From Candidatus Babeliales bacterium (lineage in GTDB: Bacteria; Babelota; Babeliae; Babelales; JANWKD01): DNA of 64,000 nt. The stretch covers positions 192,001 to 256,000 of the forward strand of contig CAVXJH010000003.1 of the NCBI GenBank assembly GCA_963762115.1, in the 5' to 3' direction. Shown piece by piece: positions 15,675 to 60,357 of the stretch (positions within the stretch are counted from its first letter, which is position 1; each line of letters begins with the position of its first letter). The notes under the pieces were generated by a model that was given only the letters and a program-made list of their open reading frames with translations, did no database searches and had not been told where the DNA came from. Position numbers and translations under genes: made by a program.

Positions 15675-18600
15675 ATGAAATTTTTAAACTGTTCTTGGTT
15701 AAAAATAATGTTTGTCGGTGCGCTACTTGCAGTGCCTTTTTTTGGTGTTGAAGATAATTTTGCTATGGAAGGTGAAATTATTGGTCGATTGGTTTCAGAA
15801 GGTTTAGAAGAAGGTGTTGCGCAGGGAATTGGTCGTGCTGCACAAGAAGGATTTGCCTTTGGCGCAGAAGAATTTGCGCAAAAAGGCTTAAGTGAAGGTG
15901 TTGAGGGCGCTTTGAATTCCAGTATCAAAGAAGGTCTTCAAGCTTTAGAGGGAGATATTGCGAAATTTAAAGCGGGTACAATTTCGATTGAAGAATTAAA
16001 ACAATCAGCAGCTACTGTTTTTGGTGAACAGAAAGGGAATTTTCTTAAAAATGCATCTAATGCTTTAGAAAAACAAGGAAGTTTTACTCAATTTGATAAG
16101 GCGCTTTTGGAAGGTAAACTTCCTGAGGGTTCATTTGCCAAATTTGGCGAACTGAAGCCACGTGCACTTGCCGAACAAGGAAATGTGTTAAAAGTAGAAA
16201 TAGTAAAAGGTACTCCTGATGCGCAAATTAGTGAATCTTTGGTGAAAGAAGATGCTGTTGACGTTGCGCAAAATGAGGTAACGGCGGCTAAAAATGCTGG
16301 TGGGTCATCCGAAGAAATTGCAGCAAAAGAAGGTGACTTAAAAACAGCAAAAAATGATTTGGCTGCAGATCAAAAAGTGCGAGCAAATGAAAGAGAAACA
16401 AAAGTAACTAAGGCAAAATCAGACCTAGATGCAGCGCAGAAAGAATTTGATGAAGCAACCTCGATAAAAGGAAAAAAAGAAGCTGGTGATAAATTAACTA
16501 AAGCTAATGAAAAACTTAATAAAACTAAAATTGAATATGAAGAATCATTAAAAGAAAAAGTAGCTGATGAAAAGTTAACGTATAAGCAAGAGCATGATAT
16601 TGCAAAAGAAGAGTATAAAAATGCTAAAACGGCAAAGGATACAGCAGACACTGAACTTAAACAAGCTAAACAAGAGTTAAAAGATGCCAATAACATACAA
16701 CCAAAAGATCAAGCAAAAATTGATGAAGCCCAAGCAAAAGTGAAAGAAAAGACGGCTGATTATGAACAATCGGGCAGAAATGTTGAAGAGGCACAAAAGA
16801 ATCTTATTGAAAAAGAAAATCAAGTATTAGAAAAATCTGATATTTTTAAAAATAAATGGGAAAAAACAAAGATCTTTGGCACAAAAGGTAAACGTGGTGC
16901 TTGGGAAATGGTGAAGGGAATTCCAGCATCGTTATACAATAAAGCACTCTTTATGGTTGATCAAATGTGGATAAGTATTCTTTTTGGTGCGCCAAATATG
17001 CTTATTGAGGGTTATAACTCTGCTATGGCCAAGAAAAAATTATTAGAAACAAAAGAAAGTTTTCAAAGATGGGGATATACGTGGCTTAAAATTCCAGGTT
17101 TTTGGATTAACAAAGAAGATCCGGCTAACTCACTGAATATCTATGTTGGTGTGCCAAATGATGGGTTCCCTATTACTGATACTTTCTTGCAGACTGCAAA
17201 TTACTATGTGGTGAAAAGTGATTATACCCCTTGGGGTAGTTCTTCTATTTTTGATAATATTTCCGATATGGTTCATTTAAACACCGGTTTTGTTTTTGTG
17301 AGCGATGGTCAGGCTGCAGATCTAAATGCTCCTACAATGCCTTTTATAGATGAAAAAAAACCTGAAAATGGTTTAATCTATCAATTGGATGCATTGGCTG
17401 GAAAAGCTTCTGCGGGTGTAAAAACTCAAGGTATTGAATATTATGTTGATGATTATGAGGCTGGTTACCAAGGTAATTTTAAAGTAGCTAATTTATTTAA
17501 AACGGTTGGTGTGCCATCTATAACTAATTTTCCTCCATTGCTTATGCCAACAGTTAAAGCATTACAAGATGGTTTAAGCTTTGGTATTGATAAAACAGGA
17601 AAAGCGCTTTATTTGGTACAAGGTTTTAGAGGATTTAATAAATCAGAACAAAACAATGGTAAAAACATTATGGCGGCATTAAGAGGTGACTCTACTATTG
17701 AGAGTGCGCCTGAAGCGGCTAGAGATGAAAACTATGTTATACAAGGTGTTTATATTTATCAAACAAAAGATACACCAATTGTTGATTTGGTCAAAAAGCA
17801 AATTGCTGCTGATGATGCTGAAAAACAGTTGTTATTGGATGCGATTACTGATTATGTGGTGATGCTTGATAGCAGCAATAATATTGTTCCTTTGATGACG
17901 CCTCAGCCGATGGTGTTGCCTGCTGGTTCAAAAGATTCTGCGTTTGTACATTATGCACTTAATCCGCAAATTGATAAAATGAAAAGTCTTGTTGATGGCA
18001 GCAGTAGTGCTTATGATGCTCATGGTGGCATTGAAAATAATGTAGCACTTCCTGCAGATCTTTCTGCGCCAAAAGCGGTTGCTGATCAAATTCAAGCAAT
18101 GCAAACATTCTTTAACACAAAAATCAAATATGGGCCATTCAAATATAACGGTACCATTTTAACGATTGATAAAACGCTTGCTGATGCAAATATTTTTGCG
18201 TATAAAGCTGCAGGATTCTTGGAAGGTGGCTTTGATGATTATTTTGTCGCCTTAGAAGCAATGAAAGATGAGAAAACCGGCAAAACAGTATTAGTTGCTG
18301 CTTCATTGCCTTCAAATGGCATTGTTTATTTTGTTAGTTTAGTAACATCGCGTTTTTATGATAAAAATTTGCAACCATATGCACCGCCGGTTGCACCGAA
18401 TTTAAGAGATTATTATATAAAAGATAACAATGTTGCAACAGGAAAACCTGATGATGCTACTTTACCACAAGCAAAAGCGGCGTTATATACCTTATTTGTT
18501 CAGGGCGAATATAACCCAAGTCCAAAACCGGCAAATTTTGTGGGTTCTTTACCCGTGAAGCCTTATTGGGCGCTTGATTCATCGATGTTTAATCTGCAAG

Positions 18601-21600
18601 GTATTAGTCCAATCAGTAAGGCATTAACAGATTTAAAACAGACAACATTACTTGCAGCAATTAAAACGGCACATGAAAATTGGATTACTGTGCTTGATGT
18701 TTCTGATCCTGGCGCTTTATCCAAAAAAATGGGGCCTTTTGATTTCACCACAGGGGCTATTGAGAATGTTCGTTTGCGAGCGTTGAATGCATCGGCTCTT
18801 AAACTTGGGTATTATATCTATACTTCAGGTCGTTATCCGGATGAGTTTTTAGTGGTTTCAAAAAATGAAACGGGAACTGATGGCGTTGGTGAAGAATTTG
18901 GTGATCAACAATATTTGATTAGCCTTTCAAATGGTAATGTGTATGATGCACAAGCAAATGGTAATGCTCGTACGCCAATTAAGAATATTGATTCGTTAAT
19001 GAAAACATTAGCATTAAATAATGCTGGTGTTGATAGTCGTATTGCTCATGAGCAAACAACATTGAATACTCTTAAGAGGACCACACAAGCGGATACAAAA
19101 ATCAAAGCGGCTGATAAACAAGCAAAAATTAAAACTATTGATGCGCAAATTGCTTCTATACCAACACAAAAAGCTGCATTGTATGCTATGGTGAATACCA
19201 TTGAGCAATCGCAAGTTGGTTATAATCGTTCAATGATGAATAATCTGTATAGTGATGATCTGACTTTTGGTGGTAGACAATTATATCTGTCAAAAGAATC
19301 ATATCTTGCTGGTCAATATATTTATGCTGATGTAACGGGTCTTGGTGATCCTTTAGATGCAAATGGAAAAGAAATAAAGGCGGTGACTGATCAAATTAAA
19401 GATTATTATGTTACGTATGAAGAAGGTCCAATAAATGTCGATACGGGTAAGCCTGATCCAGAAAATATTATTGCAAATCAACTCAATAAAAATACTACAC
19501 GAATAATAAGTCTTATTTCTGGTGGTGAATTTGATCGTGGTGGTGCCTTTGTTAGATCATATCAAACGATTACAATTGCTGATAAAACTACTTCTGATTT
19601 AATGGATTTTGTTAAAAAGATATTTGATATTATTAAAGCGCGCATGGATAAAGAAGGACGGCCACAAACGATTATATTACTAGGCAAAATACAACCATTG
19701 CTTGATGTGCAATATGCTGCAGTGAAAAAAGAATTGGATGCCATAGCAGAAGCTAAGAAAAATGCACTTGATCAGTACCCATCAGAATCTAATCTTGCAT
19801 CGAATCTTTTTGCAAGAAAAGATCCGTCAGATTTTTCTTCCAAAGATGTTGTACCGTATGTTGAGCAAAGTCCGGCATTATTACCACGGTATTTAAAACA
19901 AGTAACCAAAGGGAGCAAATATTATTTTGTTGCGCCTCCTGCATCAGATCCTGAGAGTGATTCTGGTAAAAAATATGAAGCAAGTCGTGCATTTATCGAT
20001 TACGATATTGATGCAAAAGATCATATCGGTCCAAATGCAAAAGGTATGATGTATGATCGTAGTGGTAAACCGCTGCAATTATTGACTGGTTGGATGTTAA
20101 ATAGTATGCGTGCTTATGCAGGACTTCTTATTGATGCAAGTGGAAAACAAAGTCTCGGCATTGGCGTTGAACATCCTTCATTGCCATTAACGGTGGTAAG
20201 AAACGGAAAAACAGAAAATGTTATGATTGATACGGGTATTAAAATCCCTGCTGATAAAGGAGCAACATTTACCGCTTATTATAATACACAAATTGATAAT
20301 TACTTTGTGCAAATTACCACAAAGCTATCAAATTACTTCATTGATTTAACAGCCGGTTATGGTTACAACCTTGATGGAACGCCGCGTTGGTATGAAGCAC
20401 CACTATTTACTGATGATAAAGGTGAAGTGTTGTTGGTTGGTACTGATAGTTTTGGGCTTAAAAAAGTTGCTTTCAAAAAACAAGGAGCAACAAAATATCT
20501 TATTTATAATCAAATGGTGAGCTTTGGTGATCTTGCTTCCTATCAAACAACTGATGAGTTGGGAAATCCAATTACTAAAAACTATATTGCTACTTCAGGC
20601 AGTGTTAAATTTCCAGAATATGGTAATGCGCAAGGTTCTTATTTCACTATGTTGAGTGACAGTTTTGGTGATCAAGGTGCGGCACCTGTTTCAACAGCAG
20701 GAGGAGAGCCAACATTGCAAGAATTACGTATAGGGTATGCTTATTTAGATCAAACAGGCAATCAATTGACGGCACCATTTTATGTTGTATGGGATCAAGT
20801 GCAAGTGGATAATCCTGGCTATGATACCTCCAAAGACGAAGGTTTTCAAAATCCTAAATATTTGGTGAAAACAAAATTGGTTGGTAAATTTATTCAAAGT
20901 CCAACAATGAAATTCTCATTGTTAAATTATGTGCAAACGCGTAATTCAGCTGGAAGTTTAGCAGGAACTTATAAGCCCGAAGATTTTTATAATTTCCCCC
21001 GTGGTGCGTGCGATCCAACTGATAGTGCTTGTATCAAAACACCAAAAGTTGTTGGGATTCTTTTCACCGTTGAATCAATAACTGGTAAGCAAGTAATCAA
21101 AGAACTTTTCTATGAAAATCAACGATGTGCGCTTACGCTTAAATCAAAAGATGCGTATTCAAGTTCCTATCAAGATGCAACAGGAAAAATTAAACCAATT
21201 ACGGTTAAACTTGAAAGTTCGCAACAAAAAGATTCACCGCTATCTGCTCATTGGCTAAGCATTACTGATGGCGCAAAAATTCTTGATTTTGCCCATGAAT
21301 CAATGGTTTGGGATACTTCACCGATGCGCTCTGATATGCCAGAAACAACAAATCTTGATTATAGAAAACGAAGAACATGGCAATTAAATGTGAGTAATTT
21401 TATAACCAATGCTGCTCTTTCGGCGAATTTTCCTGGTATTCACACCAATGCATTAGCAACAAGTCTTAATGCGGGAGTTCAAGGAGTTAATTTTGAGAGT
21501 CTTGTTGGTTGTAAGGTTTCTGATAGTATCAAAGCAGAAATTAATTTTGGCTTGAAAGCAATATCTGTTGATATGGCAGGTAACCTTTATCTCCCTCATG

Positions 21601-21935
21601 TGCCAAGTGCAAAAAAAGAAAGTCCTGTGGTGAAACGATACGTGTATACTTTTGGCAAAAATGTGCTTGAGAAAAATCTTTCATTCTATGATCCAGGCTT
21701 GGATGGTTGGTCGGTAGATTTAAATAATGGTATTTTATATGAACCGGCAACACCAAGATTTGGTTCGTATCCTATTGGAGTTGCTTTACATCCAGATGCG
21801 CTTGCTGAATTACTTGGTTCATTGCGATTATATGTTGATCGTGATTTACAAGGTAATCCAAAAGGATTGGGTATTGCAAATTGTCGTGATGAGTTAAAAC
21901 CAGCACCAACAACGAAGTCAGCTTTAAAACGTTAG
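15675..21935 (+). CDS. Very large secreted hypothetical protein (about 2086 aa): coiled coil plus repeated beta-like motif
   Basis: GGGAG RBS; signal peptide ending NFA-MEG; long A/K/E coiled coil; repeated hhSL.xG.hY/F motif. Confidence 0.85.
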   Translation: MKFLNCSWLKIMFVGALLAVPFFGVEDNFAMEGEIIGRLVSEGLEEGVAQGIGRAAQEGFAFGAEEFAQKGLSEGVEGALNSSIKEGLQALEGDIAKFKAGTISIEELKQSAATVFGEQKGNFLKNASNALEKQGSFTQFDKALLEGKLPEGSFAKFGELKPRALAEQGNVLKVEIVKGTPDAQISESLVKEDAVDVAQNEVTAAKNAGGSSEEIAAKEGDLKTAKNDLAADQKVRANERETKVTKAKSDLDAAQKEFDEATSIKGKKEAGDKLTKANEKLNKTKIEYEESLKEKVADEKLTYKQEHDIAKEEYKNAKTAKDTADTELKQAKQELKDANNIQPKDQAKIDEAQAKVKEKTADYEQSGRNVEEAQKNLIEKENQVLEKSDIFKNKWEKTKIFGTKGKRGAWEMVKGIPASLYNKALFMVDQMWISILFGAPNMLIEGYNSAMAKKKLLETKESFQRWGYTWLKIPGFWINKEDPANSLNIYVGVPNDGFPITDTFLQTANYYVVKSDYTPWGSSSIFDNISDMVHLNTGFVFVSDGQAADLNAPTMPFIDEKKPENGLIYQLDALAGKASAGVKTQGIEYYVDDYEAGYQGNFKVANLFKTVGVPSITNFPPLLMPTVKALQDGLSFGIDKTGKALYLVQGFRGFNKSEQNNGKNIMAALRGDSTIESAPEAARDENYVIQGVYIYQTKDTPIVDLVKKQIAADDAEKQLLLDAITDYVVMLDSSNNIVPLMTPQPMVLPAGSKDSAFVHYALNPQIDKMKSLVDGSSSAYDAHGGIENNVALPADLSAPKAVADQIQAMQTFFNTKIKYGPFKYNGTILTIDKTLADANIFAYKAAGFLEGGFDDYFVALEAMKDEKTGKTVLVAASLPSNGIVYFVSLVTSRFYDKNLQPYAPPVAPNLRDYYIKDNNVATGKPDDATLPQAKAALYTLFVQGEYNPSPKPANFVGSLPVKPYWALDSSMFNLQGISPISKALTDLKQTTLLAAIKTAHENWITVLDVSDPGALSKKMGPFDFTTGAIENVRLRALNASALKLGYYIYTSGRYPDEFLVVSKNETGTDGVGEEFGDQQYLISLSNGNVYDAQANGNARTPIKNIDSLMKTLALNNAGVDSRIAHEQTTLNTLKRTTQADTKIKAADKQAKIKTIDAQIASIPTQKAALYAMVNTIEQSQVGYNRSMMNNLYSDDLTFGGRQLYLSKESYLAGQYIYADVTGLGDPLDANGKEIKAVTDQIKDYYVTYEEGPINVDTGKPDPENIIANQLNKNTTRIISLISGGEFDRGGAFVRSYQTITIADKTTSDLMDFVKKIFDIIKARMDKEGRPQTIILLGKIQPLLDVQYAAVKKELDAIAEAKKNALDQYPSESNLASNLFARKDPSDFSSKDVVPYVEQSPALLPRYLKQVTKGSKYYFVAPPASDPESDSGKKYEASRAFIDYDIDAKDHIGPNAKGMMYDRSGKPLQLLTGWMLNSMRAYAGLLIDASGKQSLGIGVEHPSLPLTVVRNGKTENVMIDTGIKIPADKGATFTAYYNTQIDNYFVQITTKLSNYFIDLTAGYGYNLDGTPRWYEAPLFTDDKGEVLLVGTDSFGLKKVAFKKQGATKYLIYNQMVSFGDLASYQTTDELGNPITKNYIATSGSVKFPEYGNAQGSYFTMLSDSFGDQGAAPVSTAGGEPTLQELRIGYAYLDQTGNQLTAPFYVVWDQVQVDNPGYDTSKDEGFQNPKYLVKTKLVGKFIQSPTMKFSLLNYVQTRNSAGSLAGTYKPEDFYNFPRGACDPTDSACIKTPKVVGILFTVESITGKQVIKELFYENQRCALTLKSKDAYSSSYQDATGKIKPITVKLESSQQKDSPLSAHWLSITDGAKILDFAHESMVWDTSPMRSDMPETTNLDYRKRRTWQLNVSNFITNAALSANFPGIHTNALATSLNAGVQGVNFESLVGCKVSDSIKAEINFGLKAISVDMAGNLYLPHVPSAKKESPVVKRYVYTFGKNVLEKNLSFYDPGLDGWSVDLNNGILYEPATPRFGSYPIGVALHPDALAELLGSLRLYVDRDLQGNPKGLGIANCRDELKPAPTTKSALKR

Positions 21936-21940
21936 AACAG

Positions 21941-32151: not shown

Positions 32152-32469
32152 ATGAATATTTTGCATACATTGTTTTTTGTATCTTTGACATACTGTTCAT
32201 CGTATGCGATGCAACATGATGGTATTTTATCAAAAGGAATATTAGAAGGTCCTGTTGGTGTCATTGAGACGTATGGCAGAACAACCAATGCCATTAGAAT
32301 GTGGGTTAGTTGTCATACTCAAGCAAAAAATCTTTATTTTTCAGGATATATTTATGATATTTTTCAGAGTGACATGAGTGTTACCTTATACAATACGAAA
32401 GAAACAAAAGCATTGTGGGATGCATTAAAGAGTGAGTATAAAAAATTAGACGATGAATTAAAAAATTGA
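32152..32469 (+). CDS. Small secreted protein, paralog family member 1
   Basis: Signal ending SYA-MQ; YFSGY...TKALWDALKSEY. Confidence 0.8.
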   Translation: MNILHTLFFVSLTYCSSYAMQHDGILSKGILEGPVGVIETYGRTTNAIRMWVSCHTQAKNLYFSGYIYDIFQSDMSVTLYNTKETKALWDALKSEYKKLDDELKN

Positions 32470-32483: not shown

Positions 32484-32804
32484 ATGAAAATTTTATTGGT
32501 AATTTTTTCTGTTTCTTTGTTTTGTGCTAAAACAGTGGCAATGCATAGTAATGATTGCGGTACGTTAAAAAAAGAACTACATAAAGGTGTTGAAGCTTAT
32601 ATTAGAACAACTGATTTAGGAAAGAGAATATATGTTCAGCGCCAAGAAAAAGATGGCATAGAATGTTTTGCGGGGTATGAGGGAGATATTTTTGGTAGGG
32701 TTCCGATGACTAAATTACCTAATGATACATCAACGGCAAAATTATGGTATGAATTGCATAATGATTTTCAAGAACTAAATAAAATAAATGATATAAAGGA
32801 GTAA
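32484..32804 (+). CDS. Small secreted protein, paralog family member 2
   Basis: AAGGAG RBS; TVA-MH; CFAGY...TAKLWYELHNDF. Confidence 0.8.
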   Translation: MKILLVIFSVSLFCAKTVAMHSNDCGTLKKELHKGVEAYIRTTDLGKRIYVQRQEKDGIECFAGYEGDIFGRVPMTKLPNDTSTAKLWYELHNDFQELNKINDIKE

Positions 32805-32806: not shown

Positions 32807-33178
32807 ATGAAATTTTTGAATGCAATGTTCGCTATTTGTTTATTTAGCGGTGTTGCCCAGGGTATGCAAGATGGTGGGAAAATAGAAAAAAGAGAGCCCG
32901 ATTTTGGGAGTGGGCCTGTAGTTGCTTATGTTCAAAAATCTGAGACGGCCATGCTTTATGTTCAAAGGCGAGTTGAAAATGATGGTCAAGAATATTTTTT
33001 AGGACATATAAGTGCTTTACCGCTCTATTTGGGTGGTACAACTGAACTTGATAATGGCGAATTTACTAAGAAGTTGTGGTTTGGTTTAAATTATGAATAT
33101 GCTAAAAGTAATCAAAAATCGAAATCACCTAAAGATATTATTGGTCATTTTGAACAATTAATAATAAAAAATAAATAA
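32807..33178 (+). CDS. Small secreted protein, paralog family member 3
   Basis: AAGGAG RBS; AQG-MQ; YFLGH...TKKLWFGLNYEY. Confidence 0.8.
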   Translation: MKFLNAMFAICLFSGVAQGMQDGGKIEKREPDFGSGPVVAYVQKSETAMLYVQRRVENDGQEYFLGHISALPLYLGGTTELDNGEFTKKLWFGLNYEYAKSNQKSKSPKDIIGHFEQLIIKNK

Positions 33179-33596: not shown

Positions 33597-34514
33597 ATGT
33601 TGAAACATATATTTTTACTTTTTATGTTGTTTGGCAGTTTGTTTTGTGCTTTTTTTGGGTATGGTATGGATCAACAAACTAAACAAGAAATTGAACAAAC
33701 AAATGCGAGATATCTTGCTTGTGTTGGGACAGAAGATGTTCCGCAAAAAATACAGGATCGTACCGATGCACTTTGTATAACTTTTCAAAAAAAGGGTTTA
33801 TTGAATAAAGATACTAAGGTGCTTGTTAAATATTTAAGTAATACTATGGTAGATTATTTACGCAAGTCGGGGACTATCACTTGGAACAATCGTCTTAATA
33901 ATGGTCAAGATTTAATGCATATATCTTGTGAACATGATGAATTAACAGATGAAGAGATTGATTCGGCTTTTGGTCATGAACTTGCGCATATTGTCTTGGA
34001 TCAGAATAAACATTTAAATCCTCATTATTATATGAAAAATCTTCATTTATTTTTATTGGCTTATTCTTCAGCGTGGCCAGTTACATCGTTGTGTACGATA
34101 ATGGCATTAACGAAATTGGGAAGAAAAAAACTTCCTATTTCTTCATTTAAACAAATAAAATATGAAATTGGTGGTACTGCTTTGGCAATTGTTGGGGCGC
34201 ATGAAGCTACCACATATTTATTTAGTCAGGTAAAAGAACATCATGATCGTCCTGTGCATAGTGCATCTCGTATGACCTATCGTTTTTTGCATACATTTCA
34301 AGAAGTAGAATGTGATGTTATTGCTGCATTAAGTATACCAAACGGTGGTCGGGCTGGTAAATCATTGTATGAAAAATTCTTACAGCATTGTGGCGATCAA
34401 GATGGCGCTCTCCATAATTATCCGTGGCTCTCAACACGTGTTTGGTATCATGATAAAATTGAGCAAATGCAAAATTTGTTTACAACAAAGAAAGAAGGAC
34501 CAACGCTTAAATAA
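33597..34514 (+). CDS. Secreted zinc metallopeptidase (M48-like)
   Basis: GHELAH, two hydrophobic helices, EVECD, YP....R; signal ending GYG-MD. Confidence 0.75.
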   Translation: MLKHIFLLFMLFGSLFCAFFGYGMDQQTKQEIEQTNARYLACVGTEDVPQKIQDRTDALCITFQKKGLLNKDTKVLVKYLSNTMVDYLRKSGTITWNNRLNNGQDLMHISCEHDELTDEEIDSAFGHELAHIVLDQNKHLNPHYYMKNLHLFLLAYSSAWPVTSLCTIMALTKLGRKKLPISSFKQIKYEIGGTALAIVGAHEATTYLFSQVKEHHDRPVHSASRMTYRFLHTFQEVECDVIAALSIPNGGRAGKSLYEKFLQHCGDQDGALHNYPWLSTRVWYHDKIEQMQNLFTTKKEGPTLK

Positions 34515-37571: not shown

Positions 37572-37919
37572 TCATTTGATAACCAAATGATACTGCTTTT
37601 TTTTGATTATTTCATATAAATAAGCATTTTTTAAGTCTAACCAACATTTTTTTGTCTCTTCTGAATCAGTAAGAATAATTGGTCGTGAAAAGTTATGATT
37701 GCGTGCCAAAACACCTGAATAATTGACTTCTTTAGTTTTGTTATTTGTTGTTTGTTTGATTTCGATAAGATGGAATTCATATGATTTAGAAAAAGAAATT
37801 TCTTTATGCAATCTTGTTGTGCGTTCGTATTTTTTTATAGCAGGTGTCTTTTCCATGCCAGAGAGAGTAAAGGCAACAGTGCTGATTACGAGCATTAGAA
37901 TAGAGTGCAATAATTTCAT
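37572..37919 (-). CDS. Small secreted protein, paralog family member 4
   Basis: GGAG RBS; LSG-ME; YSGV...TKKCWLDLKNAY. Confidence 0.78.
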   Translation of the reverse strand: MKLLHSILMLVISTVAFTLSGMEKTPAIKKYERTTRLHKEISFSKSYEFHLIEIKQTTNNKTKEVNYSGVLARNHNFSRPIILTDSEETKKCWLDLKNAYLYEIIKKKQYHLVIK

Positions 37920-37998: not shown

Positions 37999-38238
37999 TT
38001 AAGTATTAATTATAGGGAGATTTGCGTTATCATTAACTAACTTGGCTCTTTTTGCTTCATTTTCAAGGTATAATAGCATGCACATATGATGCGTTTTGAA
38101 TTTGGCAGTATTAGATTTGAGAGGTCTGGGACTTAAAAAAATCGGTTTTTTATTATTCGTAGGATTTTTTCTCACCATACAAAATAAAGCAGCGTTATTA
38201 CCTATAAGTATACATACAAAATATATTCTTAATTTCAT
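37999..38238 (-). CDS. Small secreted basic protein
   Basis: AGGAGG RBS; signal peptide ending LFC-MV. Confidence 0.6.
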   Translation of the reverse strand: MKLRIYFVCILIGNNAALFCMVRKNPTNNKKPIFLSPRPLKSNTAKFKTHHMCMLLYLENEAKRAKLVNDNANLPIINT

Positions 38239-38295: not shown

Positions 38296-40335
38296 TTAAG
38301 ATTTTTTCTTTTTTTCTTCGTCTATTTGATCTTTTGCTTCTTCGTAAGCATTTTTTAATAGTTGTAAGTAATTTTTGCGACGCGGTTCTTTTACGGTTTT
38401 AGTTTTTCCAGGTGTTGTAGGATCTGGAACCTCAACATCAATTTCTTCTTTAGGATTTAATTGACTTAATTTTTGTGCTTCAACATCAGTTGCATCGTCA
38501 ACATTAAGGACAGTGCCAACAGGGACTGCTCCGGTTAAAACAAAAACTTTTGCACGGTCAACAGGAAGTGGTGTTGCTTCCAATTTTGGCTGTAAGAGTA
38601 ATTTTTCATCAAACTTTAATAATGGTTCAATGAGTTGATATGGTGTTGATTGGCCAGGTTTTTTTTGTTTTTGTTTTTCAAAATTTTCAAATTCTTGTCC
38701 GACAACTTTTTTATAGGTAGCCAAATTTGCTTTATCATCTTTAAACTCTTTGATCCCATCTTTTATTTTTCGTGGAATTGGTAACAATATGGCACTTAAT
38801 TCATTAATAAAATTCTTGAGCTCAGCAATTTTTTTTAATGCGTCTTCATCATAAGGTTTAGGCATAGGTGTTGTTATAAGTTCTTTGAACTTCCAACCTA
38901 ACAAATCTTTTTTGTCTTCTATCTTTTTACTAAATTCTTTTATTCTATCTTTTATAATGGCGACTTGTGCATTTACTTTTGATGGTAGTTTTTCTGCACC
39001 ACCCTTGCCTTTTTCAGCCGCATTTTCAGCTTCTTCTTTCTTTTTCTTCTTCTTTTTCTTCCCGCCATCTTTTTTGACACCACCAGCTTTTCCTGCACCT
39101 TTTTCACCGCCACCGCGTGCTTTTATGCCAGCTGAGGGAGGAGGGGTTAATGATTCTCCGCCAAAACTTGGTCCGCCAAAATAATCACCGCCTGGCACGC
39201 TTGGCTCATATGTTGAGTAGGAAGGTTGTGGGGGAGGCATGGAAAATACCATGCGTCCTGGCGCGGCACGTTTTCTTAGCGCGTCTTCTTGTAGTTTGCG
39301 TGCATCGGCTTCCACTTTTTCACGTTCTTGTTGCACCTTAAGTGCTTCAGGTTCATGTTTCTTGAATAATTTTTTTATTTCTTCAAGGATCAATTGTTTA
39401 TCTGTTGCTTCAGTAAGTGCTGCTAGAATTTGATCAAAAATATAGTTTGATTCTTCTTGATTTCGTAATTCAGTGTATGCCTCATTGATAGCAGCAAATT
39501 TAGTGTTGACTTCAGCTAATGCTTTATCTATTTCTGTTTTTTCTTTTCCTTGGCGAATAAGGCGAACCTCAAGTGTTTGTGGGTTTGTTGCAGCAATTTT
39601 TTGTTGATACGCTTGTACAATATCGTCCTGTGTTGCTGTGCGAGGGAGATCTAAAATTTCATACAAGTTTTTTCCCTCTAAGCTGAATTCCGCAATATTC
39701 AATTGTGGCTCTAGCTCAGCTAAATGAGTGTGTAATTGTTTTAAATTAGCCAAAAGTGGTTCAAATTCTTTTTCTGCAAGGTATTTGGTTAGTTTTTCAT
39801 TGGTTAAAAGATTTAAATAATAAATGAGATCATCAAGCCTATATTTAAAAGGAATAAGTTGATTTGCATACTCTTTATCATGAGCAGCTTTTTGGCGAAT
39901 ATCACCAATTAACCGAATAAGATTTTTTAACATTTCAATGGTGTTAACATCAGCAATAGGTGTAGATTTTTTCTCCGGTTCAAGAGGTTTTCCTGGTTGA
40001 GGCGGCGTTGGCTTTATAGGCTTTTCCAATTCTTTAAGTTCTTCTGTTTGCATATCAAGATAATCAAAAGGATCCATGCCAAGTTCTTCTGCTTCTTTAA
40101 TAATTCCTTCTCCGAGGGCGGTTAAAAAGTCGATTTGTTCTTCATCTAAACTATCAATTAATTCGGTGATCATTTTCATGTCTTCGTCACTCATATTGAA
40201 ATCTGGCATTGCGGGTTTTTGAGCTGCGTTATTAGCAGCATTTGGTCTTGGTGCCGGAGCCATTGCAGAATATAAGAACATGTCATTTGAAAAGGCGATT
40301 GTACAAAGAAAAAAAATGATTGATTTGGTTTTCAT
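38296..40335 (-). CDS. Secreted protein with degenerate J-domain, Pro/Gly-rich linker and poly-Lys tract
   Basis: NLYEILDLPRTATQDDIVQAY...NPQ...FAAINEAY; K8 run; signal ending YSA-MA. Confidence 0.82.
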   Translation of the reverse strand: MKTKSIIFFLCTIAFSNDMFLYSAMAPAPRPNAANNAAQKPAMPDFNMSDEDMKMITELIDSLDEEQIDFLTALGEGIIKEAEELGMDPFDYLDMQTEELKELEKPIKPTPPQPGKPLEPEKKSTPIADVNTIEMLKNLIRLIGDIRQKAAHDKEYANQLIPFKYRLDDLIYYLNLLTNEKLTKYLAEKEFEPLLANLKQLHTHLAELEPQLNIAEFSLEGKNLYEILDLPRTATQDDIVQAYQQKIAATNPQTLEVRLIRQGKEKTEIDKALAEVNTKFAAINEAYTELRNQEESNYIFDQILAALTEATDKQLILEEIKKLFKKHEPEALKVQQEREKVEADARKLQEDALRKRAAPGRMVFSMPPPQPSYSTYEPSVPGGDYFGGPSFGGESLTPPPSAGIKARGGGEKGAGKAGGVKKDGGKKKKKKKKEEAENAAEKGKGGAEKLPSKVNAQVAIIKDRIKEFSKKIEDKKDLLGWKFKELITTPMPKPYDEDALKKIAELKNFINELSAILLPIPRKIKDGIKEFKDDKANLATYKKVVGQEFENFEKQKQKKPGQSTPYQLIEPLLKFDEKLLLQPKLEATPLPVDRAKVFVLTGAVPVGTVLNVDDATDVEAQKLSQLNPKEEIDVEVPDPTTPGKTKTVKEPRRKNYLQLLKNAYEEAKDQIDEEKKKKS

Positions 40336-40404: not shown

Positions 40405-40806
40405 ATGGTTATGCAAAGTCAATCAAAGAAGCTTCAAGCGCAGAGTGGATTTTTGCTCATAGAGTTGTTGATAGTATTATTATTGCTTGCCGTATTTACG
40501 TATATTATTGCGTATTATCAGAGTATGAGTATTCAGACAGGCTATGAAGCAATACAGCGTTGGAAAGCGGTGAATGTAGCAAGTTCATTTTTGGCTAAAG
40601 CAACTGTTGATCAAGCTTTACTCCAAAAAAAAACGTATGAAGAAGATGGGTATGTGGTAACGTGGGAAAAGGTGCCAATGAAAATTTCCTTGCCGTCTTG
40701 CTTTACTACTTTTAAAAAAAATTCCTATCTTAATGTTACGGTAACATGGAGTGGGTATTATAATAAACAGTATTCATATCAATGCATTGGTGGAGTTAGT
40801 TCGTGA
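40405..40806 (+). CDS. Prepilin-type protein (PilV/GspI-like)
   Basis: Class III signal QSG^FLLIELLIVL. Confidence 0.8.
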   Translation: MVMQSQSKKLQAQSGFLLIELLIVLLLLAVFTYIIAYYQSMSIQTGYEAIQRWKAVNVASSFLAKATVDQALLQKKTYEEDGYVVTWEKVPMKISLPSCFTTFKKNSYLNVTVTWSGYYNKQYSYQCIGGVSS

Positions 40807-41333
40807 ATACTCATAAGTCAGGATTTTTGATTATGGAATTTCTTGTGTATTTTTTTTTGTTTTCTTGCCTTTCATATGGAATAATGCATTTTATTGTTAC
40901 TTCTTCATTGCATTTGAGAGAAGAAAGTCGGCGACTCGTTGCTATGACAGAATTATTGACGGCATTAGATTATCTAGGCCATGCACTCCAAGCGGCACCT
41001 TCAAATATGAAATTGTGGAAAAAAAAAGAAAGCAATCTTCTCATTTGGCATGATAATGATCAAAATTGCGATGTTGGCATTTGCCAGATAAAAAATAAGA
41101 TTTGGCGTATTAGCGGCACGTATTCACTTTTCAAACAAGCATGGAGTAGCAAGAAAAAAAGCTTGCTTGCAAAAAATATTAAAGAACTTTCTTTTGTTTT
41201 TAATGAAGCAACTATTCATGCTATGCCGCACATTTGCTCTATCACGTGTTCATTGACAAGTGAATCAGATTCAATTGCTTTATCCAATTCAGTTAAGAAA
41301 ACAATGTTGTTAGAAAATAGGGCTCTATCGTGA
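40803..41333 (+). CDS. Prepilin-type protein (PilW/GspJ-like)
   Basis: KSG^FLIMEFLVY; overlaps the upstream gene by 4 nt. Confidence 0.75.
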   Translation: MNTHKSGFLIMEFLVYFFLFSCLSYGIMHFIVTSSLHLREESRRLVAMTELLTALDYLGHALQAAPSNMKLWKKKESNLLIWHDNDQNCDVGICQIKNKIWRISGTYSLFKQAWSSKKKSLLAKNIKELSFVFNEATIHAMPHICSITCSLTSESDSIALSNSVKKTMLLENRALS

Positions 41334-41815
41334 AATCATCGTCTCAAGGATCAGCCCTGTTAACAATATTTCTTATTTTAAGTTCATTAACGTTGTTGTG
41401 TTGTGTAGTATGGCGAACGGCAACATTAACATTTGATGTTGCAATAACAAAACAGGAATTTGAAGCATATTATCAAAAAACAGCGGCATTTCTTAAGCAT
41501 GGTTCAGAGCTTTGTAAAAATAATTTTAAATCAGTACAAACCTATTTAAAAAAACATCGAGATTTAGTCTTGGCATTACCGGCATCAGGAAATTCTGATC
41601 GTGAAAAAAAGCAACAATGCATAGTAAAGATACAGAGTATTAATGAAGATACTCTTGCTCTTATGGCAAAATTGCAAGAAGATGGACGGCAGCTCTATGT
41701 TCTTTCTTGCATAGTTGCTCATACTAAAATTTCGAATGCAGATGCGCATGATGCATCAACAGATTATTTTGCGGTGGCTTCATGGAAAAAAAATGGCTGT
41801 ATACACAATGGTTGA
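41330..41815 (+). CDS. Prepilin-type protein lacking Glu5 (PilX/GspK-like)
   Basis: SQG^SALLTIFLIL; third gene of an overlapping triad. Confidence 0.7.
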   Translation: MKSSSQGSALLTIFLILSSLTLLCCVVWRTATLTFDVAITKQEFEAYYQKTAAFLKHGSELCKNNFKSVQTYLKKHRDLVLALPASGNSDREKKQQCIVKIQSINEDTLALMAKLQEDGRQLYVLSCIVAHTKISNADAHDASTDYFAVASWKKNGCIHNG

Positions 41816-45233: not shown

Positions 45234-45965
45234 ATGAATAAAAAGTATTTTTTTCTTTTCTCGGCTATTTTTGTTTTTTCAATGATATCTTTAGATGCAA
45301 TGCAAGAAGAACATGAAGAAAACAATCATACACAATCGAAGCAATCATTTTTTAAAGACCAGGTAATTCCTTATGGTTTAGGTATTACCATAGGGGCTGC
45401 GGCGGTTTTAGCAACAGTTGGTATATATAACGCGGATTTTTTCCAAGAAAGTCGTGAATATATTGAAGTAGTACCAAATCCTGTGAAGTTATTTTTTGCG
45501 GCTATAGCCAGCGGCTTGGTCATTAGTAACCTTTGGCTTCTCATTCGGGTACAAAAGCAAGAAGGATTATTAAATATTTATGCGGATTTGGCTCGTCTTC
45601 GTTGCGATCATTCTATGAGGTGTATTGATTTGTTATCTAAAGAAGTACAAAAAAAATCCGATGAATTACAGGAACATAAAGTAGCTCTTAATAAGATTAT
45701 TGTTCATCATTTCTTGTTTCAGGCGCAATCTACCAATAACCACGAAGCATTAAGCATTGATCTGCAAGCAGTGAAAAATATGTATAGTGATATGCAGGAT
45801 GAAGTGAAAATTATTAAAGAAAAACAGGAAATGGCTTCTTTCTTGACCAATATCTTTGATGAATTACGGGGAGATATACGTTATAGAGAGGCATTGGTAA
45901 GGTCAGAAGTAATAGAACAACAACGAATTCATGGTAATCGTTTGAATCTTGGTGGCGTTGAATAA
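45234..45965 (+). CDS. Secreted/membrane protein with bilobed hydrophobic region and coiled-coil tail
   Basis: Signal ending LDA-MQ; two hydrophobic helices; heptad-rich C-terminus. Confidence 0.78.
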   Translation: MNKKYFFLFSAIFVFSMISLDAMQEEHEENNHTQSKQSFFKDQVIPYGLGITIGAAAVLATVGIYNADFFQESREYIEVVPNPVKLFFAAIASGLVISNLWLLIRVQKQEGLLNIYADLARLRCDHSMRCIDLLSKEVQKKSDELQEHKVALNKIIVHHFLFQAQSTNNHEALSIDLQAVKNMYSDMQDEVKIIKEKQEMASFLTNIFDELRGDIRYREALVRSEVIEQQRIHGNRLNLGGVE

Positions 45966-46582: not shown

Positions 46583-46867
46583 ATGAAATTTCTATCATTA
46601 CTATCTCTTTTAACTATTTTATCAATTTGTGCAATGGATAAAGTTGTTGAAATTAAATTTAAAGAAGTTTCATATGGATGCTTTAAGTCAAAACAATTTG
46701 AACAAGTATGTAAGGGTGATGACTATAAAATATATACAGTTTCACAATTGACCAATGCTAAAACAGGAAAAAGTTCTTGGACAGGTAATCAAATGACTGA
46801 AGAAGAAGCAAAGAAAAAGTATGCAGAATTAGAAACACTATTTAAAGAACAAAATCAAGGACAGTAA
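46583..46867 (+). CDS. Small secreted protein, possible distant member of the 32 kb paralog family
   Basis: AAGGAG RBS; ICA-MD; WTG...AKKKYAELETLF. Confidence 0.75.
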   Translation: MKFLSLLSLLTILSICAMDKVVEIKFKEVSYGCFKSKQFEQVCKGDDYKIYTVSQLTNAKTGKSSWTGNQMTEEEAKKKYAELETLFKEQNQGQ

Positions 46868-46920: not shown

Positions 46921-47880
46921 TTATGAACGAGGCCTTAAAAGGCCACTTGCTTCTTGATAAAATGCTTTTGTTTGTTCATTGGCATCTGCATCAATAATTT
47001 TTCCAGATTGCTTGTCTTGATATTCTTGTTTAAATAGAGACGCTATTTTATATTGAAGATAATGATAGGGAGTTGGAAATGATTCTATATATATTCGTTT
47101 GCCTATAGCTTTTATTGATTCAAATACTTCATTATAAAGTGGCGCTTGTGCATCAATCAATAAGGATAATTTTTCTAATGCGTGTGTACGCAATTTTTGA
47201 TCATGTATATCTTCAAAAGTTTTAACAAAGTTACCAACAAGTTCGCTAGTATCATGTGGTAATCCATGTTTTAACAATAATTGTATCATTTTTGAGGGTA
47301 CATGTTTATTATTAAGAGAATAATGAAAGAGCATTGTCGTCGAGTGAATCGATGGAGCATTGTGAAAGTCTTTAAGCTGTTGGCTAAATGCCTTTCGCAA
47401 TGTATTTAAAATTTTCTTTGTTTCTATAGTAGTTAATTTAGATTCTTTATCGCGGTTTTTCTCTTGAATTTCTCTTAATATACAAAAAATATGTAGTTTA
47501 TCTTCTATGGGCAAATAGAAGTTTTTTGTTGAATAGGCAATGTCGACAGCGATATCAGCATAATCATCTAAAGGTAAAACTTTAAATAATGTAATAAGGG
47601 TTCTTTTATTTTGCTTTGATGCAAAAGCTCGGTTTAAGAGGGGGTTTATTAATTCTTCTGGCAAAGGATTTTGATTAAGTTGTACAGTTAGATTTTTAGG
47701 TTTTTGATTAAAAAATGCTTGCATTGATATTTTTAATAAAGATTCTGGTTCAAATTTTACTGCTTGAGTTTGTTCTTCATTTTCTCTTTGTTTTTTTGAT
47801 GGTGGCGCTTCCATAGAATGTAGGGCGTTCCATGAAAAACAAATAAGAGATAATGCTAGGACAAGATTTTTCATATTCAT
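46921..47880 (-). CDS. Secreted hypothetical protein, tandem paralog B (SOCS-box-like N-terminal motif)
   Basis: Signal ending LHS-ME; shares blocks with 47877-48902. Confidence 0.82.
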   Translation of the reverse strand: MNMKNLVLALSLICFSWNALHSMEAPPSKKQRENEEQTQAVKFEPESLLKISMQAFFNQKPKNLTVQLNQNPLPEELINPLLNRAFASKQNKRTLITLFKVLPLDDYADIAVDIAYSTKNFYLPIEDKLHIFCILREIQEKNRDKESKLTTIETKKILNTLRKAFSQQLKDFHNAPSIHSTTMLFHYSLNNKHVPSKMIQLLLKHGLPHDTSELVGNFVKTFEDIHDQKLRTHALEKLSLLIDAQAPLYNEVFESIKAIGKRIYIESFPTPYHYLQYKIASLFKQEYQDKQSGKIIDADANEQTKAFYQEASGLLRPRS

Positions 47881-48902
47881 AAATTTGTGCTTTCTAGAGT
47901 GTATTCAGGTTTTAATAAACTATATGCTTGCATATAAAATTCTTTTTTTTTGTTATTGGCATCTACATCAATAGCTTTCCCTAAAGAAATATTGTTAGAT
48001 TCTTGCTTAAATATACTTGTCACTTTATGTTGAAGGTAATCGTAGGGGGTAGGAAAGCAAGAAGTTCTTCTATTAAAGACTTTGCCACTGGGTGTATGTA
48101 TGAGAGCCGTGTTATGATAAAGGACTTTACCGCTTGATTCGCATACTTCATTATAAAGTGGCGCTTGTGCATCAACCAATAAGGATAATTTTCTTAACGC
48201 GTCTGCACGCAATTTTTGATCATGTATATCTTCAAAAGTTTTAACAAAATTGCCAACAAGTTGGTTAGTATCATGTGGTAATCCATGTTTTAAAAGTAAT
48301 GCAATTGCTTCAGAAGGGGCTTGTGTTTCATTAAGACAATATTGAAATATCAAGGATTGCGAATCAATTGTCGTATACTCACAGAGTTCCAAATTTTTTT
48401 TAAAGGATTGTTGAAAGGCTTTTTTGAAAACATCTAAAATTATTATTGTTTTTTTGTTATGATTATTATCGTGTTCTAAATTGCTTTGCATAGCAGAAAT
48501 AACTTCTACTTTATCTTCTGATAACAAATGAATGTTCTTTGGCGAATAAACAATATCAGCAGCAACTTCTTCACAATTTTCTGGAGATAGATTTAAGTTT
48601 TTAATAAGAGTTATAAGAGTATTTTTTGGCTGATAAGATTCAAGAGCGCTTATAAAAAGAGGGTTGTTTAGTTCTTCTGGTAATGGGTATTGTGTAAGCT
48701 GCTCAGATAGATTTTCCTGTTCTTGCTTGAAAAATGCCAGCATCGTTGTCTTCAATAAGGATTTTGGTTCAAATTTTACTGCTTGGGTTTGCTCCGCACG
48801 CTTCTCATTTTCTCTTTGTTTCTTTGGCTTTGCATTATCACTTGCATAGAGAGGTAAAAAATATATATATGACAATAATACTAATAAATTTTTTCTGTTC
48901 AT
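47877..48902 (-). CDS. Secreted hypothetical protein, tandem paralog A (SOCS-box-like N-terminal motif)
   Basis: Signal MNRKNLLVLL...LYA; shared KHGLPHDT..LVGNFVKTFEDIHDQKLR block. Confidence 0.82.
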   Translation of the reverse strand: MNRKNLLVLLSYIYFLPLYASDNAKPKKQRENEKRAEQTQAVKFEPKSLLKTTMLAFFKQEQENLSEQLTQYPLPEELNNPLFISALESYQPKNTLITLIKNLNLSPENCEEVAADIVYSPKNIHLLSEDKVEVISAMQSNLEHDNNHNKKTIIILDVFKKAFQQSFKKNLELCEYTTIDSQSLIFQYCLNETQAPSEAIALLLKHGLPHDTNQLVGNFVKTFEDIHDQKLRADALRKLSLLVDAQAPLYNEVCESSGKVLYHNTALIHTPSGKVFNRRTSCFPTPYDYLQHKVTSIFKQESNNISLGKAIDVDANNKKKEFYMQAYSLLKPEYTLESTNL

Positions 48903-55311: not shown

Positions 55312-55887
55312 ATGAAATCACGTTTGTTTTTGTTGGCGTTACTGCCATTTTCTATTATTGCAATGGAAAAAAAAGAAAAAAACTTTGAAGCAATATATAA
55401 TACATTCAAAATGGATGCCATGAGACAACTATCAGCAGAAGAAAGAAATGCAATTAGCTTAGATGAATATAAAGCAAATAGAGAAGCAGGCGTTAAGGCA
55501 TTAGAAGTTTTTGCTCGGAATACAATAACTTTAGCATATAAAGATAAACCAATTAGCGAACAAAAATTTTTAAAAAAATCTAAAAAATATGCAGAGCAAG
55601 TCATTTATTTACGTGATGTTACTGTTGGACTTGCAAAAATTGATGTTGTTGATGAAATAACAGCCAAAGTTTATGCATTAAATTTATTGCCAACAGAAGA
55701 AAGAAAATATTTGCAATGTGAAGGCTATCGTTCCGATAAAGATAAAGCACTTCAAGCGATACAACATTATGCACAGCTAACTGGTGAAGAGCTTGAAAAA
55801 AAGAAATTATTAACAACTTCTAAAGAAGAATACGCACAAAAGTTTATTGAAGAAAAAGTAAAAGAACTTAATGCTTTATGGCTATAA
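55312..55887 (+). CDS. Secreted repeat protein, tandem paralog 1
   Basis: AGGAG RBS; LLALLPFSIIA-ME; repeat unit IDVVDE...GYRS...TSKEEY. Confidence 0.82.
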   Translation: MKSRLFLLALLPFSIIAMEKKEKNFEAIYNTFKMDAMRQLSAEERNAISLDEYKANREAGVKALEVFARNTITLAYKDKPISEQKFLKKSKKYAEQVIYLRDVTVGLAKIDVVDEITAKVYALNLLPTEERKYLQCEGYRSDKDKALQAIQHYAQLTGEELEKKKLLTTSKEEYAQKFIEEKVKELNALWL

Positions 55888-55901
55888 AATAAGAGAAGCT
55901 T

Positions 55902-56531
55902 ATGAAATTAAAATTCTGTCTTTTGGCGTTACTGCCATTTTCTATTATTGCGATGAAAAAAAAACATGCAATTCGTTTGATAAATAGAGGTGCAATAGAT
56001 TGGCATCAATGGGATGTACATAATGAGGAAAATTTAGCATATAACTTATTATCAAGTGAAGAAATACAATGCTTATCAAAAGAAAATTACCGTTCTGATA
56101 CAAATAAAGCAATGCAGGTAATACAAAAGTGGGCAAAACTTGCTGGCAATAGACTTAAAAAAGAATCCTTGTTAGCAACTTCAAAAAAAGAATATAAACA
56201 AATGTTCTTCAAAAAGAAAGTAAATGAATTTAATTGTCTTTATGGTTCATCAGCTATCAATTGGTTAGAACAACCCATTGATGTTGTTGATGAAAAATCA
56301 GCTAAAATACATGCAATGAGTGTATTGGCATACGAAGAAAGAAAATTATTACTTCACGACGGCTATCGTTCCAATAGAGATAACGCTTTTCTAGCGATAC
56401 AACATTATGCACAGCTAACTGGTGAAGAGCTTGAAAAAAAGAAATTATTAACAACTTCTAAAGAAGAATATGCACAAAAATTTATTGAAGAAAAAGTAAA
56501 AGAGCTTGATTCTTTATGGCTTTCAAAATAA
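55902..56531 (+). CDS. Secreted repeat protein, tandem paralog 2
   Basis: Same signal peptide core (IIA-MK); two copies of the approximately 95-aa unit. Confidence 0.82.
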   Translation: MKLKFCLLALLPFSIIAMKKKHAIRLINRGAIDWHQWDVHNEENLAYNLLSSEEIQCLSKENYRSDTNKAMQVIQKWAKLAGNRLKKESLLATSKKEYKQMFFKKKVNEFNCLYGSSAINWLEQPIDVVDEKSAKIHAMSVLAYEERKLLLHDGYRSNRDNAFLAIQHYAQLTGEELEKKKLLTTSKEEYAQKFIEEKVKELDSLWLSK

Positions 56532-58149: not shown

Positions 58150-58161
58150 GAGAAACATTCT

Positions 58162-58686: not shown

Positions 58687-58790
58687 TAATTCACCATACT
58701 ATAATGTATAACTTTCTTATTGAGAATAATAAAAGGATAGTAAAAGGTGACACCATTGTAAACATACAATACAGTTCAAAACATACCTTT

Positions 58791-59687: not shown

Positions 59688-59868
59688 AATTTAAAACTAC
59701 TTTTTTTTAAAAAAATAAAATTGCTATAAAGATCGTTGATATTCGATTGTACCAATACTATGTAAAAAGATCATCTGAAAGCAACTTTAAAAAATAGTAC
59801 TTGCAAAATAAGTATTTATGAAGTAAATAATTATCATTATAAAACATACCTCACTAAAAAAGGAACCC

Positions 59869-60357
59869 ATGAATAAAAATTACAAAATAGTACTTTTGAC
59901 TTCTTGCTTGTTGCTATCAATTTCATTACAAGCCATGAACAAAAAATCGGGGGGATTAAGTTTATCAACAAATGCGAGTGCAATAAGTGATGGCATTGGC
60001 AATATGCTATCAGATCCATCTACCCTGACTTCAAGTTTATGTACTATTGCTTGGCATAGCATCAACAACAATGCGAGATCAGGTTTTTTTGATAGCAACA
60101 CATTAAAGGATCCACATGTTATGTATTCGATTGCAGGTGGTATTATTGGCAAAACAATAAAATCAACGATAACTCATGAATCATTTAAAAAATTACCAAG
60201 TCCAATACAGGTAGTTATTGCAAATCCCTTTTTAAGTACCTATGTTGGTTTGCATTGTTATTTTAAATATAATGAAATAAAAAATAATCCTTTGCCCTAT
60301 CTTGGTGAAATAGGATTATTAGGCGTACATTTTCTCAGCAAGCAGTGGGGTTATTAG
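59869..60357 (+). CDS. Secreted/membrane hypothetical protein
   Basis: AAGGAA RBS; signal ending LQA-MN. Confidence 0.75.
   Translation: MNKNYKIVLLTSCLLLSISLQAMNKKSGGLSLSTNASAISDGIGNMLSDPSTLTSSLCTIAWHSINNNARSGFFDSNTLKDPHVMYSIAGGIIGKTIKSTITHESFKKLPSPIQVVIANPFLSTYVGLHCYFKYNEIKNNPLPYLGEIGLLGVHFLSKQWGY

Follow-up and report, generated by a model that had tools for sequence, protein, structure and literature searches.

Methionine at the first mature position of predicted signal peptidase I products in a Babeliales bacterium

Why do the predicted signal peptides of so many exported proteins in one bacterium end directly before a methionine? The question is raised by a stretch of 64,000 nucleotides (the window; G000:C3:192001-256000) from the assembly GCA_963762115.1 of a Candidatus Babeliales bacterium, which is 1.53 Mb long with 34% GC and is called G000 here. 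Fourteen open reading frames (ORFs) of the window had been proposed to encode secreted proteins with Met as the first residue of the mature chain (Met+1), directly after the signal peptidase I cut. The quoted residues at -3 to +2 of all fourteen are present at their coordinates, and Asp, Glu, Asn or Gln (D/E/N/Q) occupies +2 in ten of them, as proposed. The Met+1 rule is real and genome-wide; it is not due to chance and is not peculiar to the window. The Babeliales (Dependentiae) are known as a lineage of intracellular protist parasites (PMC6561590).

The methionine rule and its conservation

A purpose-written gene caller gave 1422 genes in G000, and 1417 of these were scored with a purpose-written signal-peptide model having states for the n-, h- and c-regions, the -3, -2 and -1 positions and the mature chain; all cleavage sites discussed here are predictions. 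Met was treated as missing data and the model is therefore unable to favour Met sites. At a posterior of 0.9, 589 of the 1417 genes (42%) were called as signal peptidase I substrates. This is similar to Chromulinavorax destructans, a member of the Dependentiae that is rich in ankyrin proteins and in genes without known relatives (ORFans) and in which ~44% of the genes encode signal peptides; that paper differs in that no +1 rule is described and the word methionine is absent from its main text (PMC6561590).

Met occupies +1 in 239 of the 589 predicted exported proteins and each of the positions +2 to +9 in only 6-10, so a background frequency, which would have undone the original prediction, does not apply. 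Untrained priors gave 202/494 and a simple -3/-1 score gave 114/452. In a count that uses no model, 201 of 657 genes whose products start with a hydrophobic stretch have [AGSC]-M-[DENQ] within residues 15-32; the motif lies within residues 45-62 in 12 of them, and it is present in 23 of 765 other genes. In 400 kb of E. coli, Met+1 was found in 1/60 (self-trained) or 1/27 substrates, and a Bacteroidetes plasmid with 32% GC gave 0 Met and 16 Gln at +1 of 24, which recovers the known Q-rule of that group. AT-richness and model bias are excluded as sources of the excess because of this control, because Met-poor Babeliales also have 32-34% GC, and because the model-free count agrees.

The Met+1 proteins have the layout of Sec/signal peptidase I substrates, with a basic n-region, a hydrophobic h-region and a length of ~17-30 residues (mean 21.7). 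The -3 residue is mostly L/S/A/I/V/T and the -1 residue is small: A/G/S/C directly precedes the Met in 230 of 239 proteins but precedes only 1477 of 6617 internal Mets. Non-Met substrates take any residue at +1, and Gln is found there in 23/589, so this is not the Gln+1 of the Q-rule. The 589 proteins form 425 families, of which 163 have a Met+1 member, and families are mostly all-Met or no-Met.

The rule extends to the next residue. Among the 239 proteins, +2 is E in 138, Q in 33, D in 20 and N in 16 (D/E/N/Q, 207/239). Counted with one gene per family, D/E/N/Q is found at +2 in 135 of 163 Met+1 families and 107 of 272 others (p 1e-19), while small residues are found in 12 versus 81 and hydrophobic residues in 3 versus 45. 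The mature N-terminus is biased toward E/Q/K and this bias fades by ~+7.

A second possibility is that the inner ATG is itself a start, either of a cytoplasmic isoform or as the true start of a gene whose upstream peptide is an artefact. One public gene call (P0001) does begin at the inner Met, but a Shine-Dalgarno (SD)-like site precedes only 1 of 239 inner ATGs and 54% of the upstream starts, the codon use before the inner ATG (synonymous codons at -1) resembles that of internal X-Met junctions, and the small residues before the Met set it apart from internal Mets. This explanation is highly improbable. Since the inner ATG lacks an SD and the codons are those of internal junctions, the signal lies in the protein. 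A Kozak-like nucleotide signal was considered and rejected, as the G at -3 and +4 is explained by Ala/Gly and Glu/Asp codons, and nothing was seen when cysteine parity was examined. Although a strong SD precedes the upstream start, the record P0001 (160 residues) omits the signal peptide, and it illustrates that gene callers can start Met+1 genes at the inner ATG and thus lose the signal peptide.

The Met is conserved. In 400 kb of G001, an assembly of the same genus, Met+1 was found in 54 of 136 exported proteins. Of 20 reciprocal G000/G001 pairs with Met+1 in G000 (median 35% identity), 16 keep it, whereas 21 of 99 internal Mets are kept (p 1e-6), and it persists while the signal peptides diverge; no gain was found in 42 non-Met pairs. 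Of 156 Met/Met homologue pairs, 106 differ in the spacing between the Met and the domain that they share (a figure that is partly local-alignment noise), and in a Skp1-like family the spacer between Met and domain varies from 1 to ~12 residues. The Met therefore stays with the cut and not with the domain.

Range and cargo

The rule was followed across the order. At 80 dnaB loci, Met+1 was found in 91 of 421 exported proteins, with 8-15 at neighbouring positions. Samples of 80 kb gave 16/27 (G020), 6/20 (G014), 10/34 (G022), 3/14 (G068), 3/20 (G005), 2/21 (G063), 1/21 (G064), 1/27 (G016), 0/10 (G007) and 0/15 (G038). Additionally, a crude DNA pattern (MK...small-M-E) was compared with its codon-swap (small-D-E) over 151 genomes, giving 3551 versus 2261 matches; 31 genomes pass at p<0.01, uncorrected and with kin that are not independent. 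The ratio is 2.5-3.5 in families f1, f10, f11 and f17 and ~1 in f4, f6, f8, f9, f16, f18, f20 and f21. Judged from these sequences, the trait is lineage-specific and patchy within the order.

One G063 locus holds an array of ankyrin paralogues in which +1 varies (A, F, M), Gln is kept at +2 and several members end in CaaX; it may represent a variant of the rule of the form x-Q. Four oddly labelled loci carry TLC-like arrays that are the same as in Babeliales.

The Met+1 proteins differ in kind from other exported proteins. Pfam scans covered 169 of the 239 Met+1 proteins and 268 of the 350 without Met, chosen to represent families in 60 regions and the window. No match was found for 136 of the 169; of the 33 that matched, 28 by manual tally have WD40 (12), ankyrin (8), C2H2 (3), J (3), RING or TPR domains. 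Only 11 of the 96 matched non-Met proteins fall in this set, and 85 are enzymes, transporters or envelope parts. The Met+1 proteins are thus enriched in eukaryote-like domains. Among envelope and housekeeping exported proteins, hand-picked from the Pfam matches, Met+1 was found in 1 of 28; the exception is BamA, whose G020 orthologue lacks it. The PafA-, CapA- and Bcp-like proteins of the window also lack Met+1, as originally noted.

The Skp1_POZ cut-off is exceeded by two Met+1 proteins. The Skp1_POZ family was found in 21 of 151 Babeliales genomes, 13 of which also show the Met excess (31 genomes in all), and in none of 14 controls. Several exported proteins fuse a Skp1/BTB-like domain to WD40 and are likely mimics of ubiquitin-ligase adaptors. 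A search of the ESM Atlas with the Skp1-like region returned Skp1/Elongin-C clusters with a score below 0.9, a lead only; a signal peptide plus Met gave no match, and in one homologue search the sole match was the query gene itself.

CaaX is a C-terminal motif that is read by eukaryotic prenyltransferases. CaaX-like ends were found in 15/239 Met+1, 2/350 non-Met exported and 5/626 cytoplasmic proteins, falling to 0-2 when the motif is shifted from the end; by family the counts are 10/163 versus 1/272 (p 3e-4), and the ends mostly follow basic residues. These tails suggest prenylation in the host. Signal-peptide proteins that end in basic residues plus CaaX (KRCIIS-like) number 17 of 589 in G000, and CaaX-ended signal-peptide proteins are also found in G063, G064, G131 and G039. 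A DNA-pattern test for CaaX in 15 genomes, which yielded few complete genes, found Met+1 in 1/1 signal-peptide gene of Met-rich and 0/4 of Met-poor genomes.

What the methionine start may do

We propose, with a probability of roughly 0.5, that selection keeps the Met-E/Q/D/N start because it gives the proteins a host-type N-terminus and so spares them N-degron turnover. What the sequences show is the rule itself, the fact that it is conserved and confined to orphan proteins and adaptors of eukaryotic type, and genes for two signal peptidases I and for GspD/GspE-like proteins. The proteins would be exported by Sec and cut by signal peptidase I directly before the Met, would pass the outer membrane through a type II-like system or in outer-membrane vesicles, and would arrive in the protist cytosol, where Met-E/Q/D/N would look like an ordinary host N-terminus. 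N-degron routes are fed by bare Glu, Asp, Gln, Asn, Lys and Arg termini and by Met-hydrophobic (PMC8037982), and Met before a large residue is normally untrimmed, while Met that precedes an acidic or hydrophilic residue is a possible target of NatB acetylation (PMC3104970). Protection would come about as the host Met-aminopeptidase leaves the Met, no Met-hydrophobic degron is formed and no Glu, Asp, Gln or Asn is exposed. Acetylation by host NatB, whose substrate list is Met followed by D/E/N/Q, would be possible and is not needed for this protection. The choice of +2, the eukaryote-type domains, the CaaX tails and the near absence from the envelope all fit.

Several points weigh against a host-type N-terminus. 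Exported UCH, RING-XB3, HDAC, DOT1, MavL-like, PLA2B, MutS, NCA2 and SIR2 proteins lack Met+1, and the predicted first residue of some is destabilising (UCH R, HDAC Y, PLA2B R, DOT1 K); within one ankyrin-containing cluster, Met+1 is missing in 20 of 46 members. The Met-poor genomes G064 and G063 are ankyrin-rich, and only 1/22 and 1/12 of their signal-peptide ankyrin proteins have Met+1; four signal-peptide CaaX proteins of Met-poor genomes start with A, E, A and F. The CaaX link was not replicated in samples from relatives (2/187 Met+1 versus 10/579 non-Met), and enrichment of nuclear localization signals (NLS) is weak (14/133 versus 9 in shuffles). Nat complexes work mainly on ribosomes (PMC3104970), and unacetylated Met-Asn and Met-Gln can lose Met (PMC8037982). 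Since eukaryote-type enzymes lack the Met and the trait is patchy across the order, Met+1 is not a full effector marker, and the earlier suggestion that it defines an effector class does not hold; the original interpretation is supported in part. The signal peptides are found on normally intracellular enzymes that lack Met+1: a UCH-type deubiquitinase, a histone deacetylase, a DOT1-like methyltransferase, a MavL-like hydrolase, MutS domain V and glutamine synthetase.

The main rival is that Met-E/Q/D/N and the short E/Q/K-rich, hydrophobe-poor stretch behind it would form an address for a second export step (a type II-like system, vesicle loading or a vacuole translocon), which we consider possible but rather unlikely. 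The reach of the E/Q/K bias and the lack of Met in envelope residents would suit an address, as would the two GspD-like secretins and the GspE-like ATPase of G000 (all below NCBIfam cut-offs), and in the Plasmodium export element (PEXEL) the mature N-terminus, even its first residue, decides export (10.1101/2023.07.12.548774). The secretin genes lie 5 kb apart in a layout that is repeated in 5/5 genomes tested, with GspE- and pseudopilin-like genes elsewhere, but the tandem secretins are alike in Met-rich and Met-poor genomes (5/5). As the secretins are shared and Met-poor lineages encode Met-less signal-peptide ankyrin and CaaX proteins, the export machine of the order does not need Met. Alternatively, a bacterial enzyme might cap the new N-terminus, as the inner-membrane glutaminyl cyclase of Bacteroidetes does (PMC10653852). 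The candidate is a single-copy RimI-like GNAT with a basic N-terminus, a hydrophobic N-terminal anchor (predicted facing outward) and an acetyl-CoA motif, all of them conserved; its best NCBIfam match is RimI, below cut-off. Of 151 genomes, 106 carry it, and the families divide cleanly (every sampled member of 13, no member of 8); 27 of the 31 Met-excess genomes belong to families that have it. Families f6, f13 and f14 have the GNAT and little Met excess, however, four Met-excess genomes (f12, f7) have no GNAT match, and one deep split amounts to one comparison. The acetyl-CoA transporter family PF13000 was found in none of the 151 genomes searched, and the role of the GNAT is that of a candidate only; capping by it is improbable. 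Both Peptidase_M24 matches are predicted to be cytoplasmic. It is very hard to credit that one of the signal peptidase I paralogues has a preference for Met at P1': G000 has two tandem lepB genes and the order has one or two copies, but G014 has one match with Met+1 in 6/20, G064 and G007 have two with 1/21 and 0/10, and the non-Met substrates show no preference at +1.

The Met could also be a relic with little function today, left where signal peptides were joined to captured genes ahead of their start codons and then multiplied as families expanded. The J and Skp1 domains follow 3-12 residues past the Met, only 57 of 712 homologue pairs are mixed Met/non-Met, and the Met+1 genes are younger or faster (orthologues were found for 21 of 54, versus 52 of 82 non-Met genes). 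The +2 residue tells against it. A Skp1-like profile was built from Met+1 genes including their signal peptides, and its matches include the queries' own clusters. Among the 150 matches listed, 43 have a signal peptide, of which 31 are Met+1 with D/E/N/Q at +2 in 26; the other 107 lack a signal peptide, and among 104 of their starts 80 are Met-small and 13 are Met-D/E/N/Q. As the homologues without signal peptides start mostly with Met-small, donor-like starts do not explain the choice of +2, and among G000's own starts only 142 of 626 have D/E/N/Q after the Met. The Met also outlasts neighbouring residues in orthologues. A mobile signal-peptide cassette was looked for and none was found among unrelated Met+1 genes (mean identity 38%; at least 68% in 2 of 27,870 pairs). 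Neutral grafting, the simpler alternative in the original prediction, is disfavoured together with internal initiation because the Met is kept in orthologues, the inner ATG lacks a ribosome-binding site and +2 is unlike donor starts. As the sole cause grafting is largely refuted, and a relic with little present function is improbable; grafting may be the origin of some Met+1 families. Separately, in one tandem array of G000 the signal peptides of the 14 Met+1 paralogues are nearly identical, and C2H2 zinc fingers are matched in some members.

Known systems offer partial likenesses to the Met+1 rule. Under the Q-rule of Bacteroidetes, signal peptidase I substrates carry Gln at +1, which is cyclised to pyroglutamate (PMC5837995, PMC10653852); as here, the residue directly behind the cut is fixed in one lineage, is shared by much of the exported proteome and is a proposed stabiliser. 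The Q-rule is near-universal, spans all compartments and has a modifying enzyme, whereas the Babeliales residue is Met with a +2 rule, is patchy in the order, avoids the envelope and has only a candidate GNAT with a loose fit to the Met excess. PEXEL cleavage exposes an x-E/Q/D N-terminus on proteins of an intracellular parasite, which is N-acetylated and needed for export by PTEX (10.1101/2023.07.12.548774), and the Babeliales +2 order is similarly E > Q > D. PEXEL operates in a eukaryotic endoplasmic reticulum with plasmepsin V and RxL, while the Babeliales proteins follow Sec/signal peptidase I and the -3/-1 rule and lack the RxL pattern; their +1 is fixed as Met, and an export role and acetylation are only putative. 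The start also resembles NatB-type N-termini, with Met before an acidic or hydrophilic residue that is normally untrimmed, avoiding Met-hydrophobic and bare D/E/N/Q (PMC3104970, PMC8037982), but it is made by signal peptide cleavage and NatB acts mainly co-translationally, which makes acetylation uncertain. Titles cited in PMC6160973 place the Sec-secreted Listeria proteins LLO and ActA under the host N-end rule, so that their first mature residue has consequences inside the host cytosol, as it would here; these are single proteins with regulated turnover, in contrast to a proteome-wide rule. The Met+1 rule belongs to neither the Q-rule nor the PEXEL family and is of the kind in which signal peptidase I leaves one fixed residue at +1. 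A full Babeliales counterpart of PEXEL, in which signal peptidase I would expose Met-E/Q/D/N, the RimI-like GNAT or host NatB would cap it and a type II-like machine would read it as an address sending ~240 effectors into the protist cytosol, seems distinctly unlikely.

No description of a Met+1 rule was found in the literature searched, which excluded supplements (where SignalP tables may stand) and most subscription papers. Next to the Q-rule it is a second +1 rule for signal peptidase I products that runs through a lineage, and the first of the two tied to likely host-targeted cargo and not to the envelope. It offers a one-residue predictor of some 240 candidate effectors per genome, mostly orphans, from a phylum of protist parasites that has largely escaped cultivation, and it opens to experiment the question of how Babeliales proteins exported by Sec reach the host cytosol and survive there. 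If the host-type N-terminus is correct, host protein-turnover rules shape a bacterial secretome at proteome scale.

Features of the window and related loci

Met+1 was found in 11 of the 28 signal-peptide proteins of the window, and the Met-blind model ranks the Met site first in 11 of the fourteen proposed ORFs. Predicted cleavage before the Met stands for thirteen: these eleven and two that are backed by homologues. The J-domain protein is rejected, as the model prefers a cut one residue earlier and Met+1 is absent in 13 of 13 homologues among the matches listed. A paralogue without the Met, which the original list omitted, is a counter-example within the window.

Table 1. Positions of the exported proteins of the window and of other loci named in the text (the hyphen in the cut column marks the predicted cleavage site).
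Feature	Location	Strand	Met codon	Cut	Posterior	Remarks
2086-aa exported protein	15675..21935	+	15765-15767	NFA-ME		Met site second-ranked; G001 orthologue (56% identical) cut HSYA-MEA; no Pfam match
105-aa small-family protein	32152..32469	+	32209-32211	SYA-MQ	0.98	Paralogue of 32484
106-aa small-family protein	32484..32804	+	32541-32543	TVA-MH		Met site second-ranked, model prefers MHS-ND; Met site backed by paralogues and L031 homologue (ELSA-MDS)
123-aa small-family protein	32807..33178	+	32864-32866	AQG-MQ	0.98	Paralogue of 32484
305-aa protein	33597..34514	+	33666-33668	GYG-MD	0.71	HExxH motif read from sequence; no Pfam match at 1e-4
115-aa ORFan	37572..37919	-	37854-37856	LSG-ME	0.55	
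79-aa ORFan	37999..38238	-	38176-38178	LFC-MV	0.99	Strong SD; atypical +2
679-aa conserved J-domain protein	38296..40335	-	40261-40263	LYS-AM	0.92	Non-member; Met probably +2, not conserved; weak DnaJ match
Three prepilin/pseudopilin-like genes	40405..41815	+				Prepilin-like N-terminal stretch read from sequence; weak PilV match, below cut-off, first gene only
243-aa ORFan	45234..45965	+	45300-45302	LDA-MQ	0.98	L031 neighbour FLAC-MQEE
94-aa ORFan	46583..46867	+	46634-46636	ICA-MD	0.90	
319-aa protein	46921..47880	-	47812-47814	LHS-ME	0.91	Then NLS-like PSKKQR
341-aa paralogue of 47880	47877..48902	-		LYA-SD	0.96	50% identity; no Met
191-aa protein	55312..55887	+	55363-55365	IIA-ME	0.91	Paralogue of 55902
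209-aa protein	55902..56531	+	55953-55955	IIA-MK	0.86	
162-aa protein	59869..60357	+	59935-59937	LQA-MN	0.99	G001 orthologue SSYG-MGK
Signal-peptide enzymes	L157:3735-4907 (-), L135:5669-6754 (-), window 50971-51636 (+), L136:12978-14450 (+), L159:3422-5413 (+), L149:9647-11035 (+)					No Met+1
Skp1/BTB-like-WD40 fusions	L124:8522-9811 (-), L113:14447-15019 (-), L159:5543-10039 (+), L117:31-3784 (+)					
Basic plus CaaX ends (examples)	L124:8522-9811 (-), L131:8336-10915 (+), L127:31-1896 (+)					
Tandem lepB genes	G000:C3:457976-459744					
Tandem GspD-like secretins	G000:C6:205033-213979					
RimI-like GNAT	G000:C6:47313-47894 (L145:9064-9642)	+				
Met+1 paralogue array	L158:1903-14239 (G000:C6:349268-361600)					
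Gene of record P0001	L141:16525-17067	-				
Ankyrin paralogue array	L378 (G063:C1:50001-70000)					
Exported proteins with alanine-rich tails	window 6935-9685 (-), 9869-10486 (-), 14540-15556 (+)					QAIAAA, AVIAAA, QAIAAA
Thioredoxin reductase-thioredoxin fusions	window 10639-13943	+				

The pseudopilin-like genes of the window are possibly part of a type II-like system able to carry Met+1 proteins across the outer membrane. Elsewhere in the window, three unrelated exported proteins have near-identical C-terminal tails, which we take to resemble the alanine end of a transfer-messenger RNA tag. Additionally, two thioredoxin reductase-thioredoxin fusions are encoded in tandem, each with an N-terminal membrane segment.

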